DNA from: an uncultured Chloroflexia bacterium
GTDB lineage: Bacteria; Chloroflexota; Ktedonobacteria; Ktedonobacterales; JADMIN01
DNA length: 32,000 nt
Direction: 5' to 3'
NCBI GenBank assembly: GCA_963718915.1
Contig: CAVRAI010000015.1
Coordinates: forward strand, 720,001-752,000
Shown here: positions 1,114 to 30,963 of the stretch, piece by piece
How positions within the stretch are numbered: the stretch's first letter is position 1
Layout: each line of letters opens with the position of its first letter
Notes under the pieces: generated by a model
Seen by the model: only the letters and a program-made list of their open reading frames with translations
The model's database searches: none
What the model was told of the DNA's origin: nothing
Program-made: the position numbers and the translations under genes

Positions 1114-4100
1114 GTGCAGCATCTGACGATCCGCGTGGTCTGGCACGATAACAGGTGGAATGGACGGATTTGTAACGCGCCATCGCTCAATGGCTATTGT
1201 CTGGCGCAGGAGCGTATACGTAAGGATCGCGATGACGCGAAAGAGGATCGGCTGGCGGGGCGTTCATGGCGGAGCCTCAGGCGCGGCGAGTTGCCCCCAT
1301 GTGTAGCTGAATCCGGCGGCTTCATGAGCGACAACGAATGGGTACGCTCATTTGATCCACCGTTCCAGAACACCTTACCAGCAACCCATGGCGCTCTGCG
1401 CAAGACGACCATGCGCGTCGAGCCGTATACCGCGCTTGCCGTTCCCTTTCGCTGGATGCTACGCGAGCATCAGCGACGGATTGATGATAGGCTGCCAGAG
1501 CCACTCCCCGCCGACGAAACACCGCCACTCCACACGTCATGGGTGTTCAACCGCATCAGACAGGAAGCGATTGGCAGCCAGTTCTTCGGGCAACTCACAC
1601 CGGAGCAGTCACTGGTCTTCTTCTATTGCAAAGAGGGTCAACCCCTTGGCGACAGCATCTCGCGGCTGGTCGTCGGCGTTGGACGCATCCAGGCTATCGG
1701 GCTACAGAGCTACTATGATAGCGACGGTGAAGTGAGCTATCCAATCTGGGACCGCAAAATTCACCATACCATCCGGCCTGATGACGACGATGGGTTTCTG
1801 TTGCCCTATCACGACTACCTCACGCCTACTGGTGATCCCGACGAGGATCTGCGCCGCCGCAGCCTGCTGGAAACAATCGCCATCGCGGTTGACCCTGCGC
1901 ACATCCCGGCGTTCTCGTACTCGGCGGAACTGGCTTCATCCGATGTCGCCCTCGCGACGCTGATGCGCTGCCTGGATGCTGTTCGCCTTATTCGCATGCA
2001 CGGCATCGCAGACGGGACGTGGGATCAGCGCGAACAGTGGGTCAACGACCAGATCGCCGCCACATGGCGCGACCGTGGCGAATTTCCGGGCGTCGGATCC
2101 GCGCTGGAAGCGCTCGGCTTGCGTATCGGAACATCCCTGATGCTGGACCTGACGCGGCTCGGCATGATTCGCCCAGAGAGCAATCCCTGGCCTGTCGTGG
2201 ACGCCATTTTACGCGGGACGCAATCAGCGCCACTACCCTCGTATGAGCCGCACCTCGCCCCCGTACGTCTGGTCTGGGCAAATCTGCCCGACGAGCGCCG
2301 CAACCTACTCTATTTGCTTGCGCGATTTGACCTCTCACCCGAACAGGCGCGGCGCTGGTATGAGCCATCTGAGCGCGCAAAGATAACCCTCACCGCGTGT
2401 AGCGATGGCGATATCCTGGCGAATCCCTACCGTATCGCAGAAGCCGACCTGGGAGACGACACCTCACCCGCCATCACCATGGAAATTATCGACCGGGGTC
2501 TCTTCCCCGACGATGCCATCCGTGTGCATGACCCACCGCCTCTGTCAGCCGCCTTTGAAGATCACAACGACATCCGTCGAATCCGTGGCGCGTTGGTAAC
2601 TGTCCTGCGCGCGACGGCCAGGTCGGGCGACACACTGCTCAATGCAGTAGATGCCCTTGAGCGTCTGCGCAAGCTCCCAATCATCCCACCGCCAAGCAAT
2701 ATTGGCGTAGATTGGCTCACTGCCTACCGCGACCCGCTTGCAGACGCTGTCGCCGTCTATAACGTTGCATCTGGTGATAATGACAACGTCGAAATCAGCG
2801 TTGTTCAACTCACCGAGTTGCGCAAACGCGAAGACCTCGTGCGCAAAACGCTTCAGGGGAGAGCCGCCGCGCCGCTCGAATCGCTCCGGGTGGACTGGAA
2901 GTCGCTGCTTATCGAGGCTATTGGCGACGCCTACCAACCCCGGAACAAGCGCCATCACGACGCCCTGGACGAACAGGCGACGGCCCTCGAACGCATTACG
3001 TCCCGCAAGCTCTGCGCACTGACTGGACACGCGGGCACTGGCAAGACGTCGGTTATGGGCGCGCTCCTGCGCTGCCAGCGACTACGCGAGGAGGGCATCC
3101 TGTTGCTCGCGCCGACGGGCAAGGCACGGGTGCGGCTGGAGCAGACGGCAGGGAAAAATGCGGAAACACCACGTATTCGCGCCTTCACCATCGCCCAGTT
3201 CCTCTATGACCTTGGGCGGTACGACGGGGATCACCAGCGTGCGCTATTCACCGGAGACGCCACCTACAGGCACGCGCGAACCATCATCGTCGACGAAGCA
3301 TCCATGCTCACGCTGGATGACCTCGCTGCCTTACTTCTCGCCCTCGATCTCCTGCATGTGCAGCGGATCATTCTGGTCGGCGACCCAAATCAGTTGCCGC
3401 CCATTGGTGCAGGCCGCCCGTTCGCGGATCTGGTGTCATATCTCGATGCGCTAGCCACCGGCGATGGCGCTGCTGATACGGCGGATACCACAGCCGCTGG
3501 CGCGCTGGGCAAGCTCAGTATCGAGGTGCGCACACGGAGCGGAGACGCGCCCTCCGATGCGCTGCGACTCGCCTCCTGGTTCTCTCGTGGGCCACAACCC
3601 GTCGATGCCGACCGCGTACTGGATCAGGTCACTACGGGCGCGCAACTCAACGATCTGGATATCAGCTTCTGGCAAACGCCTGAAGATCTGCGTGCGCGCA
3701 TTCTGGAGAAATTCCAGACGTACCTGGGACTGGAGCATCGCAGCGACATCGCGGGCTTCGACCGCGCCCTTGGCATAGGAGAGGGTGGCCGGGTGCGCTT
3801 CGATGCGCCAGACGGCGTCGAACACTTCCAGATACTTTCGCCGACGCGCATGCGGCCACATGGCGTCTATGACCTGAATCGCTGGTTGCAGCGACGATTC
3901 CGCGCCGACGAGCTACGCAGAGCGCATTACAGCAACGGAAAGAGCCTCGGCCAGGAGGAGATTGTTCACAAGGACAAGGTTATCCAGGTTCGCAACGAAT
4001 GGCGCTGGATGTATGACCATCAGCGCCGCCTGAAGATGAGAGGCGCTCTTGCCAACGGTGAGATTGGCATAATCGCCAGAGGTCAGGGCGACTTCATGGA

Positions 4101-4821
4101 TGTAGCGTTCTCTGGCCACGCGCACCAGACCACTGGCTATATCGCGTCGCCGTATGTGGATCGTGAGTGCCCCCTGGAGCTCGCATATGCGCTGACGGTT
4201 CACAAGGCGCAGGGCAGCCAGTTTGATATTGTCTTCGTCATCATTCCTGAGCAGAGCGTGCGGCTCTCGCGCGAACTGCTCTACACGGCGCTCACCCGCT
4301 CGCGTGAACGTCTGGTGTTACTGGTGCAGGGGGATGACGCGAGCCGCCTCTATGCGTACAGCCTGCCCGGCGCGTCCGACACGACTCGCCGCAATACCAA
4401 TCTCTTTACCCCAGCGGTTCGCGACCCTGCCTCTGACTATCCAAACGCCAGATATCTCATTCACCGGACCCCCGGCGGTCAACTCGTGCGCAGTAAGTCG
4501 GAACTGGTCATCGCGAATATGCTCGAACACATGGATATCCCCTACAAATACGAGGAGCCGTTCTTTGGGGAGACCGAGCCGGGACGGCGCTTCCCAGACT
4601 TCACCTTCGCAACCGCCGCTGGCAGACGCATCATCTGGGAGCACCTCGGCATGCTCACGCTCCCCGACTATGCGCGCGGCTGGGAGGAGAAGCGTCTCTG
4701 GTACAAGAGAAACGGCTACCTTGAGGGAGCGCAATTGTTCACCACCCGTGACGACGAGCGAGGTGGGCTGGATTCACGCGACGTGCGGAAGGTCGCGGAG
4801 CGTATTCAGGCGCTCATCTGA
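1114..4821 (+). CDS. 1235-aa fusion: uncharacterised N-terminal region + SF1B RecD/TraA-like helicase + C-terminal PD-(D/E)xK-like nuclease domain
   Basis: Uninterrupted 3.7-kb ORF with GTG start and GGGAAGGGA upstream. Helicase motifs: Walker A GHAGTGKTS (nt 3025-3051), LLLAPTGKA, IIVDEASML, ILVGDPNQLPPIG, ALTVHKAQGSQFD, LLYTALTRSRERLVLL. An NPY segment (ILANPYRIAEADLG) resembles RecD2-type N-terminal regions. C-terminal aa 1112-1235: SKSELVIANMLE...RFPDFTF...IIWEHLGM, a restriction-endonuclease-like D...E pattern. The N-terminal MQHLTIRVVWHDNRWNGRICNAPSLNGYCL could not be assigned. Confidence 0.85.
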   Translation: MQHLTIRVVWHDNRWNGRICNAPSLNGYCLAQERIRKDRDDAKEDRLAGRSWRSLRRGELPPCVAESGGFMSDNEWVRSFDPPFQNTLPATHGALRKTTMRVEPYTALAVPFRWMLREHQRRIDDRLPEPLPADETPPLHTSWVFNRIRQEAIGSQFFGQLTPEQSLVFFYCKEGQPLGDSISRLVVGVGRIQAIGLQSYYDSDGEVSYPIWDRKIHHTIRPDDDDGFLLPYHDYLTPTGDPDEDLRRRSLLETIAIAVDPAHIPAFSYSAELASSDVALATLMRCLDAVRLIRMHGIADGTWDQREQWVNDQIAATWRDRGEFPGVGSALEALGLRIGTSLMLDLTRLGMIRPESNPWPVVDAILRGTQSAPLPSYEPHLAPVRLVWANLPDERRNLLYLLARFDLSPEQARRWYEPSERAKITLTACSDGDILANPYRIAEADLGDDTSPAITMEIIDRGLFPDDAIRVHDPPPLSAAFEDHNDIRRIRGALVTVLRATARSGDTLLNAVDALERLRKLPIIPPPSNIGVDWLTAYRDPLADAVAVYNVASGDNDNVEISVVQLTELRKREDLVRKTLQGRAAAPLESLRVDWKSLLIEAIGDAYQPRNKRHHDALDEQATALERITSRKLCALTGHAGTGKTSVMGALLRCQRLREEGILLLAPTGKARVRLEQTAGKNAETPRIRAFTIAQFLYDLGRYDGDHQRALFTGDATYRHARTIIVDEASMLTLDDLAALLLALDLLHVQRIILVGDPNQLPPIGAGRPFADLVSYLDALATGDGAADTADTTAAGALGKLSIEVRTRSGDAPSDALRLASWFSRGPQPVDADRVLDQVTTGAQLNDLDISFWQTPEDLRARILEKFQTYLGLEHRSDIAGFDRALGIGEGGRVRFDAPDGVEHFQILSPTRMRPHGVYDLNRWLQRRFRADELRRAHYSNGKSLGQEEIVHKDKVIQVRNEWRWMYDHQRRLKMRGALANGEIGIIARGQGDFMDVAFSGHAHQTTGYIASPYVDRECPLELAYALTVHKAQGSQFDIVFVIIPEQSVRLSRELLYTALTRSRERLVLLVQGDDASRLYAYSLPGASDTTRRNTNLFTPAVRDPASDYPNARYLIHRTPGGQLVRSKSELVIANMLEHMDIPYKYEEPFFGETEPGRRFPDFTFATAAGRRIIWEHLGMLTLPDYARGWEEKRLWYKRNGYLEGAQLFTTRDDERGGLDSRDVRKVAERIQALI

Positions 4822-9564: not shown

Positions 9565-10008
9565 TTACCGGAGCGCCAGTGAATGCCGCAGCTCGCTCAG
9601 CGCTGGATCGTAGACGAGCGCGCCTGCCCCGATGGCCGCGTTGTGCTGCTCGGCGCTCATCAGCGCGCAGTAGAGATCGGCGTGGCTAAGGTTGGCTCCG
9701 CGCAGGGTGACGCCTGTCATGTCAGCGCTAATCAACAATGCGTATGTGAGATCCGCGCACTGTAAATCGGCTCCGACCATAGACGCGCGCCGCAGATCGG
9801 TTGCCCGGAGCGATGCGCCCTCCAGCGCTGCGCCAGAAAGGTCTGCGCCCCAGAGCGACGCGCCGTTCAGGGTCGCGCCGCGCAGATCGGCGTTACGCAG
9901 GCGGATGCCTGTCAGCGTCAGATCGTTGAGTTGCGCGCCGCGCAGGTCAGCGTTCTCGAAGTTGCGCTCACCCGCCTGATAGCGGCGCTGTAGTTCCTGT
10001 ATGTGCAT
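9565..10008 (-). CDS. Pentapeptide-repeat protein
   Basis: Start refined to ATG 10008 (MHIQELQRRY...). Contains runs of A(D/N)LxG pentapeptides: ADLRGAQLNDLTLTGIRLRNADLRGATLNGASLWGADLSGAALEGASLRATDL... Confidence 0.85.
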   Translation of the reverse strand: MHIQELQRRYQAGERNFENADLRGAQLNDLTLTGIRLRNADLRGATLNGASLWGADLSGAALEGASLRATDLRRASMVGADLQCADLTYALLISADMTGVTLRGANLSHADLYCALMSAEQHNAAIGAGALVYDPALSELRHSLALR

Positions 10009-10275
10009 GAAAAAGAGTACTCCCCTCGTGTGTGAAAAACCTGGCGAATGGACGCAAAAAGCCCGCCTGACCCACGCCTGGGGTCCGACGGGCAACGCTG
10101 TCCACCTGAGATATGTTGTCGCGATTTTCGCGAACGATTCCGAAATGAGTGGCAGGCGTCGTCGCCTGCCGGAATACATATCACTATCAATTATAGGCCG
10201 AGAATCAAGACATCGCCCAGATGTCGAGACGGCGTTTTCATGAGCGCGATGTCAGTCCTCGGGCTGAGCTGGCAT

Positions 10276-10622: not shown

Positions 10623-11885
10623 TTACGGCTGGATACTCTTCGTGATGTTCGCCAGGAACTCCTCGTTGTTCTGCGTCTTGGCCATCTGCGCCAGCATCGC
10701 CTCCATCGCCTCCATGCCCCGCTGCTCGGCCAGGGTGGCGAACATGCGGCGCATGACCACGACCGCCCGGAGCGCGTTCTCGTCCAGCAGCAGTTCCTCG
10801 CGGCGCGTGCCGGTGCGGGTGATGTCAATCGCTGGGAAGATACGCCGATCCGAGAGCTTGCGGTCGAGCGTGACCTCCATGTTGCCGGTGCCCTTGAACT
10901 CCTCATAGATGACGTCATCCATGCGGCTATTGGTATCTACTAGCACGGTGGCGACGATGGTCAGCGAGCCGCCCTCTTCGACGTTGCGCGCCGCGCCGAT
11001 GAAGCGCCGGGGCGGCGTAATTGCGGCGGGATCGAGGCCGCCAGAAAGCGTGCGCCCGCTGGACGCGACAGCGAGGTTATAGGCGCGGGTGAGCCGGGTA
11101 ATGCTATCGAGCAGCACCACCACATCCTTGCCGCCCTCCACCAGTCGCTTGGCGCGCTCGTTGACGATCTCGGCGACGTGGACGTGCGCCTCTGGCTCCT
11201 CGTCGAAGGTCGAGCTATAGATCTCGGCCTTGACGCTCCGGCGCATATCGGTCACCTCTTCGGGCCGCTCGCCGATCAGCGCGATCATCAACTGCACGTC
11301 GTTATAGTTGGCCAGGATCGAGTTGGCGATGGTCTTGAGCAGCAGCGTCTTGCCTGCCTTGGGCGGCGCGACGATCAGGCCGCGCTGGCCGCGCCCGATG
11401 GGCGAGAGCAGGTTGATGAGGCGCCCGGTGATGTTGGCGGCGTCGGTCTCCAGATCGAACATCTGGCGCGGGAAGATTGGCGTCAGGCCATCGAAGTTGG
11501 GGCGGTGCTTGGCGGCTTCCGGATCCATGCCGTTGACTGCCTCGACGCGCAGCAGGCCGAAAAACTTCTCGTTGTCCTTTGGGGGGCGCACCTGGCCAGA
11601 GACCATGTCGCCTGTGCGCAGGCCAAAGCGGCGAATCTGCGTCTGCGAGACGTAGACATCCATTCCGCCGGGCATAAAGCGCCCGCGCCGCAGGAAGCCG
11701 AAGCCTTCCTCGACGATTTCGAGGACGCCCGCGCTGAAGATGTTGCCCTGGCGCTCGGTCTCCGCCTGGAGCAGACGAAAGATCAGTTCCTGCTTGCGGA
11801 GCGCCGTATAGCCAGAAAGGTCGCGGTCGCGGGCAATGTCGCGTAATTCGCCGACAGTTTTCGTTTCTAGTTCGGTAATATTCAT
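10623..11885 (-). CDS. rho: Transcription termination factor Rho
   Basis: N-terminal MNITELETKTVGELRDIARDRDLSGYTALRKQELIFRLL, followed by an OB/RNA-binding region (GFGFLR). Walker A PPKAGKT, Walker B VVVLLDSITRLTRAYN. 420 aa. Confidence 0.97.
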   Translation of the reverse strand: MNITELETKTVGELRDIARDRDLSGYTALRKQELIFRLLQAETERQGNIFSAGVLEIVEEGFGFLRRGRFMPGGMDVYVSQTQIRRFGLRTGDMVSGQVRPPKDNEKFFGLLRVEAVNGMDPEAAKHRPNFDGLTPIFPRQMFDLETDAANITGRLINLLSPIGRGQRGLIVAPPKAGKTLLLKTIANSILANYNDVQLMIALIGERPEEVTDMRRSVKAEIYSSTFDEEPEAHVHVAEIVNERAKRLVEGGKDVVVLLDSITRLTRAYNLAVASSGRTLSGGLDPAAITPPRRFIGAARNVEEGGSLTIVATVLVDTNSRMDDVIYEEFKGTGNMEVTLDRKLSDRRIFPAIDITRTGTRREELLLDENALRAVVVMRRMFATLAEQRGMEAMEAMLAQMAKTQNNEEFLANITKSIQP

Positions 11886-12487
11886 GGTATGTGCATTCGA
11901 GAGCCGGGGTGTGGTGGTTCACGCGCCAGTATCCAGGGGCGGATAGCGCTGAATCGCGGCTCTGTCTCCTTTCAGTGAACGAATTGTTGGGGTGTTTTGA
12001 AGGATCTCTTTGATAGGGAATACGACACTGCTACGGGCGTCGTTCAACACACTTCTCTATGCAGCCATACCGCCGGAACATCATGAAACGGCGAGCATTG
12101 CATGTGTGGGGAGGGGGTTGCCCCCCAATAGCCAGGAGCAAATGTACACGGAGATATCTGCCAGCAAGCCAACGCACGCTCCACGCGCCAGTGGTGTGAG
12201 ACATGCTCTCTAGTGATATATCACGTACGAGCCGCGATGTCAAGCACAGTGGCGGCAAGCATGGGCTATATGACTGGCGCTGACTATGACTGTTGGTGGA
12301 TGGGCGCCGCGCCGCAGGGCTTATGAACATTCACTTATTACTCCGAACACATTGCGTTGTCGTGAGGCGAGGCAGGCCGTAGCGTCAACGCTACGGCGAA
12401 TTTCCGCATCTCAACCCCATTCGCCGGGGCCTTTGGGCTTCCAGCATGCTCGCCCCAGCACACTGTACGGTGTTCATTCTAAAAGTT

Positions 12488-12507
12488 CATCAGCCTGCGG
12501 CTAATCC
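12488..12507 (-). repeat. Half copy of REP-like module 2 (GGATTAGCCGCAGG...)
   Basis: The plus strand reads TCAGCCTGCGGCTAATCC, the reverse complement of the GGATTAGCCGCAGGCTGA motif seen at 19827 and 31217. Confidence 0.5.
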
Positions 12508-12635
12508 TGGGGCGAGCGCACCGCTTTGGATGGCAAAGATTGGCATGGTAGCATCTTCTTGCTTTCTCTACTGATTTCCATGCATACTGTGCGCATGCGG
12601 CGACACTGCTCCCCCGCCGCACGGAGGCGCGCTCT

Positions 12636-15586
12636 ATGAGCCAGACGACTATGACTCCGGCGACCGACTCGCCAGCACCGAAACCACCACCGCCGCAATC
12701 GCCGGGTTTCTGGCGTTCGCTGGCGCGTGGCTTTCTTGGACTATGGTGGGTCTTTGTCGTCGCGCTGGCCGCTGGCGTCGCGTCGTATCTTGGCAACCAT
12801 GCCGGGCCGCTGGTCTTGCCGATCATCCCGCAGGTCGTCGCCTGGGCGCGCGCGCTGACGCTTCCCGCGCAGGTTGGGCTGGCGATCCTGATTCTGGCAT
12901 TGCTTGCGCTGATGGGCTGGCTGACGTACCTTGCCTGGCAGCATCGCCAGCGGCAGGCGGCGGAGGAGGTGGAGGCGAACGTTGCCCAGCAGGCAGCGGC
13001 CTTCACCCAGACGATGGAACATGACGTCAATCCGCGACTCGACAACATCGGGGCCACGGTGGACGAGACCAGCCGTGATGTGAAGACGCTGATTCAAGAA
13101 GGGCAGAGCGCGCCGCTGCCGCTCGTCCGCGATCTCGACCGCGTCAGCTTCAGGATGGGCGACCGCGCCGCCGCCAATTTCAGATATGTCTATGGGCCGG
13201 TGCGCGCTATCTTCGACCAGGCAACGGCTACACTGCATGACGCCGCTCAGTATATCGGGGCGAAGCAGGGCATTCTGGTGACGGGCGCGGCCAACGCGGG
13301 CAAGACCCGCCTGGGACTCGAAGCGCTCATCGCGGCGCTGCCCGACTGGGATACACTCGTCTGGAATGTTGGCGATGGCGAGAGCAGGATACCATCGGCG
13401 AAACAACTGGAAGGGCGCAGCGTCGCCGTCTTCCTCGACGACATCCAGAACTACGCCGCTGGTGGCGACATCGCGAGTGGTTCGGATGGGCGATCAGCTC
13501 AATCGTCGGTCGCTGGCCCAGGGGCGACCTTGCGGACACTCTATCAGCGCGTCTGCCAGGACTCCGCTCATGTCGTCATCGTCGCCACTTGTCGCCATGA
13601 GGACCAGAAAGCCGCCGAGGGTAGCCTGGGCTGGTTTTTCGAGAAGCTCGACGAAGTAGCGATCCCCACGTTCAACCGTGATGAAGGGTCATTGGAGGCG
13701 CGGGAAATCATCGCCGAGTTCGCGGAGCAAGGCGCGATTCGCGACGAGTGGAACGGCACGCTCGGCTCGCTGGTGCTCGGCCTGGGCCGCAAACGCCAGC
13801 AATATAGAGACCTGGTGCTTCAGCATAATCCCGATAATCCTGCCGTCCCCGTGCTGCGCGCGATGAAGCTGCTGACCATTGGTGGCGTCCTCGATCTGAC
13901 GGGAAGCCGCGTGCGCGCCGTCTGCGACCAGATGCTGCACAGGTCATCGCTGGCAGTGTTGGGCGAAGCATGGGATGACGCGCTTGAGGAGTTGAAACGC
14001 CTGGAGTTCGTCGCGATTACCCCGACCGATGATGGCGACGTGCGGGTGGCGATTCTCAAGGATGATTACTTCAAATATGTCGTGGACGACTATCCGGAGG
14101 ACTACCAGCTTCAGCAACACCGCGCTGGCCTATTGAATGTGCTGGTATCGCTCAAAGACGACGATGCCCTGTTCGATCTGGGTAATGGATTCTACTTTGA
14201 CGATCTATTTACCTCGGCCCTCGCCGCCTACGAGCAGGCGATCCGCCTCAACCCGACAATGCCACCGCCTATAACAACATGGGCACGACCCTCGGCAAGC
14301 TCGAACGCTACGCCGAGGCCCTCGCCGCCTACGAGCAGGCGATCCGCCTCAACCCGACCGATGCCACCGCCTATTACAACATGGGCACGACCCTCGGCAA
14401 GCTCGAACGCTACGCCGAGGCCCTCGCCGCCTACGAGCAGCGATCCGCCTCAACCCGACCGATGCCACCGCCTATAACAACATGGGCAATACCCTCGATA
14501 CGCTCGAACGCTACGCCGAGGCCCTCGCCGCCTACGAGCAGGCGATCCGCCTCAACCCGACCGATGCACCGCCTATAACAACATGGGCACGACCCTCGGC
14601 AAGCTCGAACGCTACGCCGAGGCCCTCGCCGCCTACGAGCAGGCGATCCGCCTCAACCCGACCGATGCCACCGCCTATAACAACATGGGCACGACCCTCG
14701 GCAAGCTCGAACGCTACGCCGAGGCCCTCGCCGCCTACGAGCAGGCGATCCGCCTCAACCCGACATATGCCACCGCCTATAACAACATGGGCACGACCCT
14801 CGATACGCTCGAACGCTACGCCGAGGCCCTCGCCGCCTACGAGCAGGCGATCCGCCTCAACCCGACCGATGCCACCGCCTATAACAACATGGGCAATACC
14901 CTCGGCAAGCTCGAACGCTACGCCGAGGCCCTCGCCGCCTACGAGCAGGCGATCCGCCTCAACCCGACCGATGCCACCGCCTATAACAACATGGGCACGA
15001 CCCTCGATACGCTCGAACGCTACGCCGAGGCCCTCGCCGCCTACGAGCAGGCGATCCGCCTCAACCCGACATATGCCACCGCCTATAACAACATGGGCAA
15101 TACCCTCGATACGCTCGAACGCTACGCCGAGGCCCTCGCCGCCTACGAGCAGGCGATCCGCCTCAACCCGACATATGCCACCGCCTATAACAACATGGGC
15201 AATACCCTCGGCAAGCTCGAACGCTACGCCGAGGCCCTCGCCGCCTACGAGCAGGCGATCCGCCTCAACCCGACCTATGCCACCGCCTATAACAACATGG
15301 GCACGACCCTCGATACGCTCGAACGCTACGCCGAGGCCCTCCAAGCATTCGAGGAAGCCATCAAACTCGATCCCAACAGTGCAGGCGCCTGGCGTAACAA
15401 GAGTGTTACGCTGGCTCTACAGGAACAGTTCGATGAGGCGCTTATCGCCTGTGACAAAGCGATTGAATTGGCCCACAAGACGCCAATGGCTGGAAGTTAA
15501 AAGCCGCGATCCTCGATGAGCTTGGGCGTGAGGATGAGGCGCGCGCCGCCGAGGAACGGGCGAAACAACTGGAAGAGCTATATTAG
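12636..15586 (+). pseudogene. Membrane-anchored P-loop NTPase fused to a TPR array of about 14 repeats (STAND/NLR-like); reading frame interrupted by four 1-nt deletions
   Basis: ATG 12636 with GGAGG 8 nt upstream. TM helices at aa ~33-52 and ~80-100. Walker A GAANAGKT (13284-13307) and Walker B VAVFLDD (13422-13442). The TPR reading continues across four ORF-track fragments (12636.., 14279.., 14482.., 14583..) and a fifth frame that encodes PQDANGWKLKAAILDELGREDEARAAEERAKQLEELY and ends at TAG 15584-15586. Frame shifts 0>2>1>0>2 occur at about 14259, 14441, 14568 and 15472. Confidence 0.75.
14216..15341 (+). repeat. Tandem array of 11 near-identical 102-bp units, each encoding one 34-aa TPR
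   Basis: Units begin at 14261, 14363, 14464, 14566, 14667, 14769, 14871, 14973, 15075, 15177 and 15279. The spacing is 102 bp except where a base is missing. Consensus: ATAYNNMG[T/N]TL[GK/DT]LERYAEALAAYEQAIRLNPT[D/Y]. Confidence 0.95.
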
Positions 15587-15640
15587 CACACCTTAATACA
15601 GCGACACACCGCCTTCATCCTCTTTTTGTGAAATAGTCCA

Positions 15641-15669
15641 TTGTCGCCCTTCCATCGCCGTGGTATAAT
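15641..15669 (+). promoter_or_regulatory. Promoter of the nadBCA operon
   Basis: TTGTCG (15641-15646), a 17-bp spacer, then TATAAT (15664-15669), in an AT-richer gap about 130 nt upstream of the nadB ATG. Confidence 0.6.
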
Positions 15670-15682
15670 TCCCAACATGAGT

Positions 15683-15701
15683 TAGTGTATCACGTACACT
15701 A
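15683..15701. promoter_or_regulatory. Inverted-repeat operator candidate just downstream of the nad promoter -10 box
   Basis: TAGTGTA-N5-TACACTA has perfect 7-bp arms and starts 14 bp after the -10 hexamer, so it overlaps the expected transcription start region. Confidence 0.5.
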
Positions 15702-15797
15702 AACACTAACAGATGTTTAACGGTGACGGATGGCACGCTGTTGGCGCCGTCCGTGAGGGCAGTGAAGACCGTTCATTGCCTGAATGAGGAGTCATAG

Positions 15798-17450
15798 ATG
15801 ACCGCGCCAACGGAGAAAGATATTCCTGTAGTGTGTGATGTCGCCATCATCGGCGGCGGCATCGCCGGATTGACTGTCGCACTGAATATGCCTGAGAGCT
15901 TGCGCGTCGTCCTGATGACCAAGGCGGCGCTCGGCGAGAGCAATACCCGCTACGCGCAAGGTGGACTCGCCGCTGCCGTTGGCCCCGACGACGATCCTGA
16001 GTTGCACCTGCACGACACGCTGGCGGCAGGCGCGGGGCTGGTAGACGAGACGGCAACCGGGGTGCTGGTGCGCGAGGCGCGCGACGCCGTCGCCTGGCTG
16101 ATCGCGGAGGGCGCGCGCTTCGACGAGCAGGCGAACGCCACAGAGACAGTGCGGGACGACCTGGCCCACCGCTACGATCTGGCCCGCGAGGCCGCGCACA
16201 GCCGCCGCCGGGTGCTGCATGCACGCGACGCTACTGGCGCCGAGATCGAGCGGGCGCTGGTCGCCGCGATTCGTGCCCGGCCCGGCGCGCTGGTTCTCGA
16301 AGATACGCAGGCGCTCGATCTGGCCTTGGGCGATGGCGCGTGCGTTGGCGTGGACGTGTTCCATGGCGGCGAGACCCGGCGCATTCTGGCGCGGGGCGGC
16401 GTTGTGCTGGCGAATGGCGGCGCGGGCCAGCTCTGGCTGCGCACGTCGAATCCAACGGGGGCGACGGCCGACGGCCTGGCGCTGGCGTGGCGCGCGGGCG
16501 CGGTGGTCAGCGATGTCGAGTTTGTACAGTTCCATCCCACCACGCTCGTCTCGCCGTCGGGTGAGACGTTCCTCATCTCCGAGGCGGTGCGCGGTGAGGG
16601 CGCCTGGCTGCGTAACGCGGCGGGCGAGCGCTTCATGACGCGCTACTCGTCGGACGCTGAATTGGCCCCGCGCGATGTCGTCGCCCGCGCCATCCTCAGC
16701 GAGATGCTGGCCGAGAACGCGCCATCGGCTTTCCTCGATCTGCGCCATCTGCCCGAACACGAGGTCTACGAGCGCTTCCCGACGATTGCCGCCGCCTGCC
16801 GCAGAGACGGCCTCGATCTTGCCCACGATCTGATTCCCGTCGCACCTGCCGCGCACTACTTCATGGGCGGAGTGACGGTGGACACCTGGGGGCGGACGAC
16901 CGTTCCCGGCCTCTTCGCGGTCGGCGAGGTATCGTGTACCGGCGTGCATGGCGCGAATCGGCTTGCCAGCAATTCGCTGTTGGAGGGGCTGGTCTTTGGC
17001 CGCAGGGTCGCATCGGTGCTGGCGGGCGTGGCGAATCCGGGCGACTGGCCGACGACCTCACCGCTGCCCGGCGTCCAGCGTGACACTGCCGCTATAGTGC
17101 TGCCCGAACGCTCGCTGACCGCGCATGTCGCCGAGGCGATACGCCAGCAGTTGCGTGCGACGATGTGGCGCGATGTCTCGCTGCGCCGCGACGCGCAGGG
17201 GCTGACTGAGGCGGGTGAGACGCTGCGCAGACTGTCGGCGTCCGGCCCGGTGGACCCAGAGACGGCGAATATGCTGCTGGCGGCGCAACTGATTGCGACG
17301 GCGGCGCTGGCACGCGAGGAGAGCCGCGGCGGCCACTTCCGCGAGGACTTCCCCAACCGTGATACGGCACTCGACGGCGTCCATTCGCTGCTGCATGCCG
17401 CGACGGTCGTTGCCCCGTGGGAAGAGCAAGAGGCGGCGGCCCATGCCTGA
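15798..17450 (+). CDS. nadB: L-aspartate oxidase
   Basis: FAD-binding DVAIIGGGIAGL; then YAQGG, RDATGAEI, HPT, and RLASNSLLEGLVFG...EESRGGHFRED, typical of the NadB/succinate-dehydrogenase flavoprotein family. GAGGAG RBS upstream. Confidence 0.95.
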   Translation: MTAPTEKDIPVVCDVAIIGGGIAGLTVALNMPESLRVVLMTKAALGESNTRYAQGGLAAAVGPDDDPELHLHDTLAAGAGLVDETATGVLVREARDAVAWLIAEGARFDEQANATETVRDDLAHRYDLAREAAHSRRRVLHARDATGAEIERALVAAIRARPGALVLEDTQALDLALGDGACVGVDVFHGGETRRILARGGVVLANGGAGQLWLRTSNPTGATADGLALAWRAGAVVSDVEFVQFHPTTLVSPSGETFLISEAVRGEGAWLRNAAGERFMTRYSSDAELAPRDVVARAILSEMLAENAPSAFLDLRHLPEHEVYERFPTIAAACRRDGLDLAHDLIPVAPAAHYFMGGVTVDTWGRTTVPGLFAVGEVSCTGVHGANRLASNSLLEGLVFGRRVASVLAGVANPGDWPTTSPLPGVQRDTAAIVLPERSLTAHVAEAIRQQLRATMWRDVSLRRDAQGLTEAGETLRRLSASGPVDPETANMLLAAQLIATAALAREESRGGHFREDFPNRDTALDGVHSLLHAATVVAPWEEQEAAAHA

Positions 17451-22822: not shown

Positions 22823-23857
22823 ATGAGCCGCCAGCGCGAGGAAAGGGCTTGGCGTATGATGTCACTTGCTGGATGGATGGCGAAGAAACGGCTACGTTCC
22901 CTGTTGTGGCTGCTCCCATTGCTGAGCCTGGCGCTGGCCACACTTGCTTGCGGCATAAGTTTCGGCTCGCACGTGGGGTATCATCCCCCGCCCGTGACAC
23001 ACCTCCCCGCTTCGCAACTGCGCCTGGAGATCCAGATCGGCGGCCAGTACGAACAGTATGGTAATCCGAGTGGCGCGCCTACCGTTGGGATCGCGGTGCG
23101 TGTCCTTGAGGGAACGAAAGCCAGCGAGTCATCTTTGGCCGATAAGGCAACGTTGACCTGCAACGGTGTCGATATCAAACGGAACGCCTACGGCTTCTCG
23201 CCACCATGCCCGCGCCAGCCGCCAGGGGGAGCGTATCGCCTTGTCTATACCGACGAGCATGGCGCGAAGACAACTGTCGTCATCCCTGTTCCTACTGGCA
23301 CGTTCGCCATCGTCTCACCGCAGGATGGCGCGGCAGTTCCGATCCCCACGAGTGGAACGCTTCCGGTACGCTTCACGGTCCCGATGGCGTCCGCCGACGG
23401 CAGCGTCGCCATAGACAATGTCACAGCGGCATGCAGCGTCTCGGATGCCCAGCCGTGCGGCGCGGTCTACGCCAATCTGCGCCCCACCGCAACCGCGACG
23501 CCGGGCCAGGGTCGTGGGATCTCCGCACTTGCTCCTCTCAGTGAAGGCATAGGGAACGCGACGCCGCTGCCGGGGAAAACACCGACAGGCGTCCCTATTC
23601 CCACTTTGCCTCCCACTCCGTCGCCAGGCGCAACGCAAACGCCGACCACACCCTTCCCCACTCCAACTGTCGTCGTGACACAGCACGGAGACACGGGAAC
23701 CATCCTGTTGTCCGGCGATTACTCCGAATTTCAACCCGCGAAAGGCTTCCTTTCGATGACCGTCGAGGCGCATGAGACGCCTGATCCCGGTGACTTTTCT
23801 TCCGTGTCGATCACCTACACGGATACCCTTCACACCCAATTCACCTGGACGCGGTGA
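22823..23857 (+). CDS. Secreted or lipid-anchored protein of unknown function, paralog 1
   Basis: Signal sequence ...KKRLRSLLWLLPLLSLALATLAC. Conserved PPVTHLPASQLRL, LTCNG, CPRQPPGGAYR and a Pro/Thr-rich linker. The start is uncertain (22823, 22856 or 22877). Confidence 0.65.
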   Translation: MSRQREERAWRMMSLAGWMAKKRLRSLLWLLPLLSLALATLACGISFGSHVGYHPPPVTHLPASQLRLEIQIGGQYEQYGNPSGAPTVGIAVRVLEGTKASESSLADKATLTCNGVDIKRNAYGFSPPCPRQPPGGAYRLVYTDEHGAKTTVVIPVPTGTFAIVSPQDGAAVPIPTSGTLPVRFTVPMASADGSVAIDNVTAACSVSDAQPCGAVYANLRPTATATPGQGRGISALAPLSEGIGNATPLPGKTPTGVPIPTLPPTPSPGATQTPTTPFPTPTVVVTQHGDTGTILLSGDYSEFQPAKGFLSMTVEAHETPDPGDFSSVSITYTDTLHTQFTWTR

Positions 23858-23873
23858 GAGGAGGTGTAGCCTG

Positions 23874-24848
23874 ATGGTCAACGCGCGTATTCCTATTGGC
23901 CGGGTTCGGCGTCTCTTGCTGTGGCTGTTGCCGTTGGTGAGTCTGGCGCTGGCCATCCTGGCCTGTTCCGCCGTAAACATTACCCCACGGCGTCCCGTTC
24001 CTCCGCCTGTTACGCACCTGCCAGCCTCACAGTTGCGCCTGATGATCCAGATTTTCAGGCAGTATACCGACGCGCCCACTGTGCAGACACTGATCCACGT
24101 CTATGAGGCGCAGAGCGGCCAGGAGGTTTCCCTGGCCGACAAGACCCGCCTGACCTGCAATGGCAGCGATGTAAAGTATAGTTATCCGAACAACGCGAAT
24201 CCGGCATGTCCGCGCCAGCCGCCCGGCGGGGCGTACCGCTTCACATTTACCGACGAGGACGGCGCTGCAACAACCGTCGTCGTGCCCGTCCCCGCTGGCC
24301 AGTACGCCGTCCTGTCGCCGCGCGCTGGCTCGACGGTTCATATCCCCAGGGATGGAGCGCTCGCCGTACGCTTCACCCTCCCCATCCCGCCTCCCAACAG
24401 CCGCATCACATTGCTCGAAGTGATCGCGGCGTGTCAGGGGACATCTAGCGCCTCATGTGACTCGATTGCGAACAACTTCTTTATCGCGGCGACGCCCACG
24501 CCACTCACGGGGGTTCCCAGCCCCACGGCTTTCGTCTACCATGGTCCGCCAACGCCGACGCCGAGCAGTAGCAAGCCCACCGCGACGGTCTACGAAAATC
24601 GCGGGCCGCCCACCCCAACGCCACCGCCAGGCTCTACCCCGACGGCGCCAGAGTTCGACGGGACGGTGACGCAGACTGGCGGCGTGGCGACTGTCGCGCT
24701 GACCGGCGACTATGCCCCGTTTCTGCCAGGACCGGGCAGCATCGAAATCAGCATCGCGGAGCAGATCGCGCCAGATCAGGGAGGCTTCGCCGCCGCCAGC
24801 GCCACAATGGGCGGCGACGTGACCGCCAACATCACCTGGACGCGCTGA
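23874..24848 (+). CDS. Secreted or lipid-anchored protein of unknown function, paralog 2
   Basis: Start refined to ATG 23874 (MVNARIPIGRVRRLLLWLLPLVSLALAILAC), with GAGAGGAGG upstream. Shares the same conserved blocks as 22823-23857 (PPVTHLPASQLRL, LTCNG, CPRQPPGGAYR, final ...TWTR). Confidence 0.7.
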   Translation: MVNARIPIGRVRRLLLWLLPLVSLALAILACSAVNITPRRPVPPPVTHLPASQLRLMIQIFRQYTDAPTVQTLIHVYEAQSGQEVSLADKTRLTCNGSDVKYSYPNNANPACPRQPPGGAYRFTFTDEDGAATTVVVPVPAGQYAVLSPRAGSTVHIPRDGALAVRFTLPIPPPNSRITLLEVIAACQGTSSASCDSIANNFFIAATPTPLTGVPSPTAFVYHGPPTPTPSSSKPTATVYENRGPPTPTPPPGSTPTAPEFDGTVTQTGGVATVALTGDYAPFLPGPGSIEISIAEQIAPDQGGFAAASATMGGDVTANITWTR

Positions 24849-29086: not shown

Positions 29087-29134
29087 GACAGGGCAGCCAG
29101 ACATAGTATGTCGCGTAGCGGAGAGGCAGTGGCC

Positions 29135-30450
29135 ATGAGCGCATTTCATACGACCTTCGTCAGCCATGCCCACGCCGATAACGACCTCTGCGACCGCTAC
29201 GTCGCGGCGCTGCGGGCGCGCGGGATCGATATCTGGTACGACCGAGACAACGCGCAGAACGGCCATCTGCTCGGCTCAGCGATCCAGGATGAACTGAAGC
29301 GCCGTTCGGCGTTCGTGCTGCTGATGACCGAGGCGTCGCTCACCTCATTCTGGGTTGACCTGGAGACGCAGACCTGGCTTGGCCTGATGGCGCAACAGCG
29401 TTCGCGCCTCTTGCTGCCCGTGCGTATTGGCTCCTGCGCCGTGCCGCCAATGCTCAACGCCTTCTTCTGGGTCGATGCGCAGGCGATGCCGTTCGAGAAA
29501 GCGATTGACGCTATCGCAGCCGCGCTGAACGGTACTCCGTCGCCGTCGGCAAGCCACCGTTACCCCACGCCGCGCGACACATTGCCGCCGCTCGGCCCGG
29601 CGCCCGCGCCCGCCAACAGCGCACCCGCGCACCACCTGACGCCGATGCCGCTCTACAATCTGGGCTTTCGCGGCTACACCATCGGCGGCATTGAATGCAT
29701 TCTGCCGCCGCTCTGCCCCGTGCCTGGTGGCGTATTCACCATGGGCAGCGACAAGAGCCGCGATAAAGAGGCGCAAGATAGGGAGACGCCGCAGTATCCG
29801 GTCGAGGTGGACAGCTTCGCCATCGGCCAGCACCCCGTCACCGTCGCCGAGTATGCCTGCGCCGTCCGCGCGAAAGTAGTTCGTGAGCCGCCACAATACG
29901 AGTCAGGTGGCAACAAATATGGGCCAGATTGGGTGACGCAACATACGCATCCTGACCATCCGGTGGTCTGCGTTTCCTGGGACGACGCCATAGCGTATCT
30001 GAAATGGCTGGCAAAGACTGACGGGCCAGCCGTGGCGACTGCCGACCGAGGCGGAGTGGGAGAAGGCGGCGCGTGGCGATGGACGGGCGCATCTATCCCT
30101 GGGGCGATACGTTCGACAAGGCGCGCTGCAACACGGGCGAAAGCGGCATCGGCACGACCACGCCCGTCGGTCGTTATCCCAACGGCGCGAGTCCCTATCA
30201 CGCGCAGGATATGGCCGGCAACGTCTGGGAGTGGACGAGCAGCCTGTTTCAGCCCTATCCCTACCGCAAAAACGACGGACGGGAGAATCCAGATTCTACT
30301 GGTAATCGAGTGCTGCGTGGCGGTTCGTGGAGCGACAATTCCAGGGTTGCGCGCGCGGCCTACCGCTTCGACTTCTACAGTCCGGCCAACTTCAACGTCG
30401 ACGGAGGGTTCCGTCTGGCTCTGGCGCGTGCGGCGGCTGGTTCAGCATAA
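29135..30450 (+). pseudogene. TIR domain fused to an FGE/SUMF1-like (non-catalytic) domain; interrupted by two +1 frameshifts
   Basis: ATG 29135 with GGAGAGG 8 nt upstream. TIR: TFVSHAHADNDLCDRYVAALRARGIDIWYDRDN...AFVLLMTEASLTSFWVDLE. Pro-rich linker. FGE-like: PGGVFTMGSD...YPVEVDSFAIGQHPVTVAEYACAV...VVCVSWDDAIAYLKWLAK. The family sequence then continues in a second frame (TGQPWRLPTEAEWEKAARGDGR, 30021-30086) and a third frame (DGRIYPWGD...NVWEWT...RVLRGGSW...GGFRLA, ending at 30450). Confidence 0.75.
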
Positions 30451-30735
30451 TTCTCTGGTTCTGATTTCTGAATTGCATTTACAATAGAATAACACTGACA
30501 GCAGAAATGGAATGGCGGGGTGTGTTTCTGGCCGCGCGTAGCGCGGAAAATTGGGGGAAATCTAACGTCTCGCCACCAAAAGCCGCTCGTCACCTGTATG
30601 ATCGCTGATGGCCGTTGCCTACCGCAAAGTCCTGCCCTTGAGCCTGCGGAACGATCCGCCTCGTCGTAGCAAGCGTGGGAAGCATGCGGGAGGTCGCTCC
30701 TCGTTGCGTGCGCTCCATGGGGCAGACCGAACCCA

Positions 30736-30963
30736 GTGCTGCGTGGCGGCTCGTGGAACAACAATTCCAGGAACGCGCGCGTGGCCTACCGCAACGACAA
30801 CCAATGGGACAACTTCAACAACAACGAAGGGTTCCGTCTGGCTCTGGCGCGTGCGGCGGATGATCCAGCGTTTCCGGCCAGTAAATCCGCACGAGTCCCG
30901 TTCGCGGGAAATCGACGGACGCGGCCACCATATGCTGAACCAGCGCGGTCATGTCCCGGCTGA
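30736..30963 (+). pseudogene. 5'-truncated remnant of a second FGE-like domain gene
   Basis: [41 protein letters not shown] parallels 30313-30430. It includes a 31-bp identical run, GGGTTCCGTCTGGCTCTGGCGCGTGCGGCGG. No intact N-terminal portion exists upstream; there is an in-frame stop at 30667. Confidence 0.6.

Follow-up and report, generated by a model that had tools for sequence, protein, structure and literature searches.

Introduction

Defence NTPases of the STAND class (signal transduction ATPases with numerous domains), such as Avs, bacterial NACHT and nSTAND proteins, unite in one large gene an effector, a P-loop nucleoside triphosphatase (NTPase) switch that includes helical and winged-helix domains, and a sensor resembling tetratricopeptide repeats (TPRs); their effectors include TIR, caspase, Mrr-type nuclease and transmembrane (TM) types, and their chromosomal position is accessory and patchy (PMC13581612, PMC8195603, bioRxiv 10.1101/2022.07.19.500537). 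Multicellular bacteria are already well known to encode STAND proteins that resemble the nucleotide-binding leucine-rich repeat receptors (NLRs) and combine a TPR sensor, an effector of TM or enzymatic type and repeats conserved within the protein (PMC7159879, PMC8195603, PMC13581612). These features are shared by the NTPase-TPR gene described here, which lies at 12636..15586 (+) of a 32,000-nt window (positions 720,001 to 752,000 of the forward strand of contig CAVRAI010000015.1, assembly GCA_963718915.1, from an uncultured, filamentous Chloroflexia soil bacterium of the Ktedonobacterales) and encodes a three-part protein: a swappable head, a core in which the Walker A, Walker B and sensor-1 residues are all intact, and an array of 13 TPRs. 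With moderate confidence, the gene is best explained as a member of an unnamed STAND/NLR-like AAA+ NTPase clade of Ktedonobacterales-type Chloroflexota, encoding an NLR-like sensor that would act through the membrane by oligomerisation.

Domain organisation of the protein

The open frame starting at 12636 is unbroken for 613 codons, to 14477, past which the protein carries on, in shifted frames, across a tandem repeat with a 102-nt unit. With four 1-nt deletions restored, the product is one protein of 984 aa, in which a 2-TM hairpin leads into a coiled stalk, and the P-loop NTPase with its helical and winged-helix domains precedes the 13 TPRs; an initial annotation, made from the letters of the window, had likewise read a single protein of about 980 aa across the frame breaks. 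The start codon is backed by the homolog P0099, which also begins with MSQTT, and the repaired C-terminus, ...AIELAPQDANGWKLKAAILDELGREDEARAAEERAKQLEELY, agrees with the C-terminus of the intact ortholog P0004.

The head is predicted to hold two membrane-spanning helices. TM helix 1 covers aa 28-53 (12717..12794, +; Kyte-Doolittle 19-residue mean 1.96; AlphaFold helix 24-55) and bears an LGLWWxFxxAL motif conserved in the alignment of the same head type, and TM helix 2 covers aa 71-102 (12846..12941, +; Kyte-Doolittle mean 2.38), with the second AlphaFold helix (76-140) extending to about aa 140. The loop between them (aa 54-70, GNHxGPL...PQ) has zero charged residues according to charge counts, and R/K residues are located on both cytoplasmic sides of the predicted hairpin. 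A helical stalk and variable linker modelled by AlphaFold (aa 103-159; 12942..13112, +) end the swappable head. Two or three hydrophobic helices had first been claimed for aa ~33-100; hydropathy and AlphaFold recover two of them and no third. The same head type, recognised by its LGLWWxFxxAL and YLGNHxGP motifs, recurs in several clusters of relatives (P0099, P0073, P0079, P0117).

The conserved family core, delimited by alignments and by full-length profile matches to profile positions 2-343, spans aa 160-505 (13113..14150, +) and contains in order a pre-P-loop motif, a nucleotide-binding domain (NBD), a helical domain, a winged helix and a linker to the TPRs. The family-specific pre-NTPase motif SFRMGDxxAANF (13146..13181, +) has nearly invariant G175, D176, A179 and A180. 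In the alignment, Walker A, GAANAGKT (13284..13307, +; family consensus GxANAGKTRL), shows nearly invariant G217, N220, G222, K223 and T224, and Walker B, VAVFLDD (13422..13442, +), has an invariant D268 and a nearly invariant D269. Strand 4 (13572..13595, +; predicted strand 312-320) ends in ATCR at the sensor-1 position, where C319 and R320 are invariant, the latter in 59 sequences; the positions given initially for Walker A, Walker B and the VVIVATCR strand (13284-13307, 13422-13442 and 13572-13595) proved exact. Judged by its position, R320 would be the equivalent of the STAND sensor-1 arginine. In the core-only PDB profile search, ATCR aligns with ATNR of Cdc48/p97, and we also take it to resemble the TTR motif of NB-ARC proteins. 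Further downstream are the invariant helical-domain motif (D/E)W(D/N)GTLGSLVLGL, defined by alignments (13746..13784, +), and a predicted winged helix at aa 403-473 (13842..14054, +), modelled by AlphaFold as three helices and a beta hairpin and containing VLxAMKLL. The invariant motifs of the family as a whole are SFRMGDxxAANF, GxANAGKTRL, hhFhDDLQ, VATCRxED and DWDGTLGSLVLGL.

Distribution of the family and exchange of heads

A word-indexed search returned 61 relatives, and a profile search of 1.84 billion representatives returned 146 clusters (at 50% identity) with E <= 1e-30, 368 with E <= 1e-10 and 1056 with E <= 1e-3, the profile matches spanning the whole core; core homologs were observed at E down to 1e-144, far beyond chance. 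A contig scan for family loci with two exact peptide patterns found five loci. The named sources are all metagenome-assembled genomes (MAGs) of Ktedonobacterales/Chloroflexia, together with Reticulibacter mediterranei. Public records label the family members only as 'tetratricopeptide repeat protein' or 'hypothetical'; such records would, on the reading favoured here, stand for an NLR-like switch family of filamentous Chloroflexota.

TM heads are present in 91 of the 131 members whose N-terminal core boundary is intact, 29 exhibit non-TM heads of at least 40 aa, and 11 have fewer than 40 residues ahead of the core, so that membrane-spanning N-terminal helices, predicted for the window's protein, are also the majority form of the family. 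The non-TM heads include TIR_2, DUF4062, Mrr_cat/Mrr_cat_2, Peptidase_C14 (caspase), NNH1 and, in one member, HTH_31, all above the Pfam cut-offs, and these alternative heads join the core at the same junction as the TM head. NNH1 is the N-terminal helical domain of bacterial NACHT proteins. Two intact orthologs, P0004 and P0053, bear a TIR head and a short TM head, respectively. At the level of sequence comparison, nothing argues more strongly for NLR-like logic than this swapping of heads on a body whose switch and repeats stay constant. The tripartite NLR/STAND organisation proposed in the initial annotation is supported by the swapping and by the predicted layout of NBD, helical domain and winged helix.

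Classification of the NTPase

The core-only AlphaFold model reached a predicted local distance difference test score (pLDDT) of 86.9 and a predicted TM-score (pTM) of 0.83, and a longer model a pLDDT of 84.6; the layout comprises a five-stranded NBD, helices 353-396 forming the helical domain, and the winged helix at 403-473. In Foldseek searches against the PDB, ORC/Cdc6 proteins came out on top for the core (E 1.8e-7 to 7e-7, 12-14% identity), the best TM-score among the listed PDB matches was to SAMD9 (0.49, 9zjv_A), SAMD9 was also the top match of the longer model (E = 1.3e-7, 9zjs_A; SAMD9 identity 11-13%), and Avs4 (8dgf_B) appeared at E = 9.5e-6. The matches to ORC/Cdc6, SAMD9 and Avs4 span 370-430 columns, and FtsH and p97 reach similar E-values. 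Because of these matches, the modelled core is assigned to the ORC/Cdc6-STAND type of AAA+ fold, and structure alone does not choose between these groups. When the PDB was searched with a profile of the full alignment, TPR proteins dominated the results, and the core alone was then used.

Comparison with curated models was carried out on the window's core and on 20 members. For the window's core, nSTAND_NTPase5 (PF25199) scored 19.5 bits (E = 9.4e-4), which is below its gathering cut-off of 34 bits. Weak Pfam matches at E <= 1 were observed for AAA_16 (PF13191) in all 20 members (best E 1.2e-5), for nSTAND_NTPase5 in 17 (best E 4.7e-6) and for nSTAND3 (PF20720) in 15 (best E 1.7e-4), the matches of the AAA_16 and nSTAND models covering the region from the P-loop to Walker B. 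NACHT (PF05729) matched one of the 20 members at E = 0.035, and NB-ARC (PF00931) was absent among the matches listed (25 of 26 families, Pfam E <= 1, 20 members). Classical AAA (PF00004) was reached by 8 of the 20 (best E 9.5e-4) and was not counted in favour of that class; by direct reading, the sequence after ATCR runs HEDQKAAEGSLGWFFEKL and contains no RPGRFD-like motif of the second region of homology of classical AAA proteins. NCBIfam gave nothing meaningful for the NTPase part.

The features that characterise STAND proteins (Leipe, Koonin, Aravind 2004) were found as follows: a Walker A of the form GxxxxGK[ST]; a Walker B ending in two acidic residues; an arginine closing the sensor-1 strand (ATCR); in the predicted structure, an NBD followed by a helical domain and then a winged helix; and C-terminal superstructure repeats (13 TPRs) with variable N-terminal effector heads. 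A well-characterised housekeeping ATPase family would have spoken against a sensor role, and none was recovered, the best Pfam scores being the sub-threshold ones to nSTAND_NTPase5, nSTAND3 and AAA_16. The early guess that the NTPase might represent an uncharacterised clade is also borne out.

Diversity of the TPR array

The TPR array, consisting of 13 units and a C-terminal helix, is located at 14166..15586 (+; Pfam TPR_1 E = 1.3e-122, 13 stretches); an array had been recognised from the start, with a count of about 14, which Pfam corrects to 13. Within it, Tandem Repeats Finder (TRF) delimits near-identical 102-nt tandem units at 14216..15341 (+; period 102 nt, 11.1 copies, 95% matches). In ten full units, 94 of the 102 nucleotide columns are identical, and the eight variable columns lie in six codons, five of which alter the residue (N/Y, T/N, G/D, K/T and D/Y). 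According to canonical TPR numbering, anchored on W4, L7, G8, Y11, A20, F24, A27 and P32, every one of which is matched here, the residue changes sit at positions 5, 9, 12, 13 and 34, that is, in helix A and the inter-repeat turn. In TPR-peptide complexes, these positions form the ligand-binding concave face; the mapping to that face comes from the canonical numbering and not from model coordinates.

Nearly all combinations of the two-state variable sites are present among the units, and this suggests shuffling between repeat units. The Reticulibacter isolate genome exhibits the same split, with helix A variable and helix B constant. Units at least 85% identical with few variable surface positions, by which NLRs with highly internally conserved repeats are recognised, were likewise observed here. 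Fungal NLRs with such repeats have been described, and the presence of these repeats in bacterial NLRs has been noted (PMC4986451; bioRxiv 10.1101/2020.01.06.895854); by its sequence, the repeat pattern of the window's gene matches them. Near-identical repeats with a few variable contact positions are the pattern that underlies rapid change of specificity in fungal NLRs.

Insertion site and genomic context

The gene is carried by a single-gene insertion of 3.35 kb between rho and nadB (12285..15637, +), delimited by blastn against the empty site of contig L015 and composed of the gene with 351 nt ahead of it and 51 nt behind it. In L015, whose NadA is 95% identical, rho is followed by nadB and the gene is absent at this site; homology to the window covers 10629-12284 and 15638-17450, and L015 has 56 nt between the break points. 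Two further contigs display other occupants of the same site. In L001, the core is 92% identical at the DNA level, the TM head is unrelated and longer, and the TPR array is apparently shorter; in L011, where rho is 94% identical, the occupant is P0004, which has a TIR head and a core 55% identical at the protein level. DNA homology to both contigs begins at 13119/13120, about aa 162, essentially at the start of the core (aa 160). One chromosomal site thus offers a natural experiment, with the same sensor core under one TM head, another TM head, a TIR head, or nothing at all. In addition, the 3407-nt contig L002 (ena:ERZ25039457:contig_86273) spans window positions 12269-15640, almost exactly the cassette, at 94.5% identity with 41 gap positions, which suggests an assembly-graph bubble, with presence/absence or allele polymorphism in that population.

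Differential divergence was observed between the core and its surroundings. Between window 13120-14200 and L001 9531-10612, the core has a synonymous divergence (dS) of 0.12, compared with 0.36-0.65 for the flanking rho, nadA, nadC and S9 peptidase genes, and its ratio of non-synonymous to synonymous divergence (dN/dS) is 0.37, compared with 0.06-0.13 in the flanking genes; L001 is a noisy contig, and noise can only inflate these dS values. By its dN/dS the core is constrained yet evolves faster than housekeeping genes, and its low dS relative to the flanks suggests that it was exchanged or converted more recently than the chromosomal surroundings diverged.

No target-site duplications, inverted or terminal repeats or recombinase were found at the insert junctions, and Rfam gave no matches across 9-18 kb. 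The sole find of the promoter and terminator scan lies outside the insert: a sigma-70-like site at 15641-15669 (+), composed of TTGTCG, a 17-nt spacer and TG-TATAAT, directly to the right of the insertion junction. Its TATAAT part is kept in the empty-site relative, and it is probably the nadB promoter, spared by the insertion.

Other copies of the family occur in varied surroundings. One adjoins IS21, integrases, a WYL protein and an NB-ARC-TPR gene; further copies have as neighbours an AEP primase region; an SMC-like cluster and an integrase; an integrase and YopX genes; a terminase fragment; ParA and D5_N; or metabolic genes. Together with the 3.35-kb insertion missing from a close relative, the copies located beside integrases, IS21, primases, phage genes and an NB-ARC-TPR gene show that the family does occur in accessory contexts. 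No neighbour gene is conserved across 12 contexts, and therefore the protein presumably acts alone.

Several of these copies have particularities of their own. The NB-ARC-TPR gene lies on contig L009 (3555-6395; HTH_3 - NB-ARC - TPR, 946 aa), where it adjoins the family member P0011, forming a small island of two different NLR-like genes with the IS21 genes, the WYL regulator and the integrases nearby. The copy in the MAG contig L007 (7569-10267) is split into three open reading frames (ORFs) of 257, 467 and 193 aa; its GC content at third codon positions (GC3) is 0.37-0.48, against 0.6-0.75 in neighbouring genes, and the copy in L005 (7773-10442) has a GC3 of 0.31. A recent foreign origin is suggested for the L007 and L005 copies, and the former may carry long-read frameshifts too.

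Proposed mode of action

On the model of Avs, bacterial NACHT and eukaryotic NLRs, the TPR array would bind a foreign ligand, probably a protein; ligand binding would lift autoinhibition and permit NTP-dependent oligomerisation of the core; oligomerisation would cluster TM hairpins that are already in the membrane, which would then be perturbed or permeabilised; and the infected cell or hyphal compartment would stop growing or die. Several results count against this interpretation. No curated STAND model was passed by the NTPase, and the defence hidden Markov models (HMMs) of PADLOC-DB v2 gave zero family matches to aa 1-542 at E <= 1. STAND proteins, ORC/Cdc6 and classical AAA+ are not told apart by Foldseek, and the core sequence profiles match Cdc48/p97 weakly. 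About one quarter of the contexts examined are plain metabolic, so that no statistical enrichment in defence islands can be claimed. Moreover, the constitutive TM hairpin may be an anchor only.

The last point leads to an NLR-like sensor whose hairpin only localises it to the membrane, for instance where phage or conjugative DNA or proteins come in, and whose output is produced by an unlinked effector or by NTP depletion. A hairpin inserted constitutively, in contrast to plant and fungal NLRs, whose pore formers are inducible, and short heads of about 70 aa, which seem small for a pore, would suit such a sensor, but no neighbouring gene is conserved across the 12 contexts, the TM heads fill the exact slot of enzymatic effectors in other members, and these heads bear conserved motifs beyond bare hydrophobicity; this explanation is accordingly rated unlikely.

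The missing PADLOC matches and the copies among metabolic genes, along with the one HTH_31 head, would also fit a non-immune, membrane-tethered STAND-type regulator or scaffold, whose TPRs bind an endogenous partner at the membrane of a bacterium with filamentous growth and complex development; regulatory proteins of NLR-like build do exist, MalT and AfsR among them. STAND clades without a defence role are scattered among those that have one (PMC13581612). This explanation appears quite improbable given that TIR, caspase, Mrr nuclease, DUF4062 and NNH1, the heads occupying the same slot, typically serve as effectors of death or defence, that one locus exhibits presence/absence and head polymorphism, that mobile elements are among the neighbours, and that the repeats are hypervariable in the manner typical of non-self recognition.

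Within the favoured reading of an NLR-like sensor acting through the membrane, a more specific and rather doubtful proposal is that the family constitutes a bacterial counterpart of a resistosome, pre-installed in the membrane, in which the hairpin would become a channel or lesion upon capture of a ligand by the TPRs, the repertoire would be renewed by shuffling of two-state TPR cassettes, and whole heads would change places in the rho-nadB hotspot, always at the junction at aa 161.

Interruptions of the reading frame

As claimed initially, four indels interrupt the gene; all are 1-nt deletions on the plus strand, and all fall in the TPR part. Break 1 lies at 14256..14258 (about 14257; ACATATG to ACAATG), break 2 at 14440..14441 (CAGGCG to CAGCG), break 3 at 14567..14568 (GCCACC to GCACC) and break 4 at 15467..15476 (most simply CCCC to CCC). 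The first three were located by aligning the repeat units with one another, and the fourth from the near-identical contig L002 and the C-terminus of P0004. Programmed frameshifting was considered and rejected, as it would require four separate +1 events.

We lean towards consensus errors of long-read metagenome assembly as the source of the four deletions, with very recent inactivation as a substantial second possibility. Short homopolymers have lost a base at three of the breaks, and L002 carries the base that restores the frame at three of the four positions. The most closely related assemblies are noisy MAG contigs, Flye-style or Nanopore, in which genes, nadB included, are split. Single-base deletions in NLR repeats of this type are a documented long-read misassembly, near-identical tandem repeats being a known trap for the consensus (PMC12222747).

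If the sequence is taken as given, 613 codons are translated, comprising the head, the core and then an out-of-frame stretch instead of the TPR sensor, and the gene would be a recently pseudogenised family copy, a relic in this genome only. Such a dead gene is a serious, although not the preferred, explanation. The four breaks lie within 1.3 kb and a fifth 1-nt deletion affects another conflict-type gene, so that all five frame breaks of the window fall in two such genes, whereas the housekeeping genes of the 32 kb are intact, with sizes as in L015, and random assembly errors are not expected to spare about 24 kb of other coding sequence; the distribution of the breaks therefore fits real decay as well as error. 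Loss is also common among accessory immune genes, and L015 lacks the gene at this site. On the other side, the first 540 codons retain every residue invariant in 58 homologs, the repeats are free of stop codons and larger lesions in addition to their identity in 94 of 102 columns, the lesions are all of the single-base, mostly homopolymer-associated type that L002 largely restores, and the related Nanopore-style contigs are similarly split. Since the family-invariant residues are all retained in these 540 codons, any inactivation would be very recent. As a practical warning, arrays of this kind draw frameshift calls in long-read metagenome assemblies.

Other genes of the window

The fifth frame break belongs to the second conflict-type gene of the window, located at 29108-30450 (+), in which TIR_2 (aa 17-134) is fused to an FGE-sulfatase domain and which is broken by a 1-nt deletion near 30020-30070. 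The last ~128 nt of this gene have a non-coding near-copy about 400 nt downstream (30735-30865), and most mismatches fall at adenines of the downstream copy (AAC to GAC, TTC or GTC), with a few non-A mismatches and a 3-nt indel also present. Judged from the aligned copies, the pair bears the signature of a variable repeat/template repeat (VR/TR) pair of a diversity-generating retroelement; no reverse transcriptase was found in the remaining 1.1 kb of the window beyond the copy. The window further contains a separate 284-aa TPR protein at its left edge (25-879, +), a 1235-aa AAA_30/UvrD_C_2 helicase (1114-4821, +) and a pentapeptide-repeat protein (9565-10179, -). The ORFs 22823-23857 and 23772-24848 were considered as one frameshifted gene, and this was rejected because they are two separate genes in L015.

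Comparison with known systems

Human SAMD9/SAMD9L share with the protein a P-loop NTPase followed by TPR-like repeats, and SAMD9 is an antiviral factor; however, SAMD9 contains SAM, SIR2-like and OB modules and has no TM head, and the E-values to it are no better than those to ORC/Cdc6. Avs5 is a bacterial relative of SAMD9/SAMD9L. The ORC/Cdc6 proteins likewise have a lid and then a winged helix after the NBD, but they are housekeeping replication proteins without a TPR array, a TM head or swapping of effectors. Membrane-acting outputs of NLRs and related systems include the resistosomes of plant coiled-coil NLRs (CC-NLRs), fungal HeLo/HET-S and bacterial TM effectors of the CBASS or Thoeris type; with these the protein would have in common that oligomerisation of the proposed sensor gathers membrane-active N-terminal helices, while the known outputs insert on activation or sit on separate proteins, and the hairpin here is predicted to be always in the membrane.

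Fungal NLRs with conserved TPR, ANK or WD repeats (HET-E/NWD; PMC4986451, PMC12222747) are similar in their near-identical units, in the variation of repeat number between alleles, in the combinatorial assortment of N-terminal domains and in arrays that are hard to assemble; they differ in being eukaryotic, in their NB-ARC or NACHT domains and in their mostly 42-aa TPRs, whereas two states per variable site are observed here. From the defence STAND NTPases, whose overall architecture it shares, the family is distinguished by the lack of a PADLOC or thresholded Pfam STAND match, by its own motifs (SFRMGDxxAANF, ATCR and DWDGTLGSLVLGL), by the TM hairpin as the majority head, by an occurrence so far only in Ktedonobacterales/Chloroflexia, and by being known from sequence alone. 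What is new relative to these systems, unless the family is already among the 589 clades of the 2026 STAND survey, is the family itself, unnamed and below every curated threshold, together with the clean head-swapping hotspot between rho and nadB, with which the diversification of sensors and the swapping of outputs in bacterial NLR-like proteins become directly testable.

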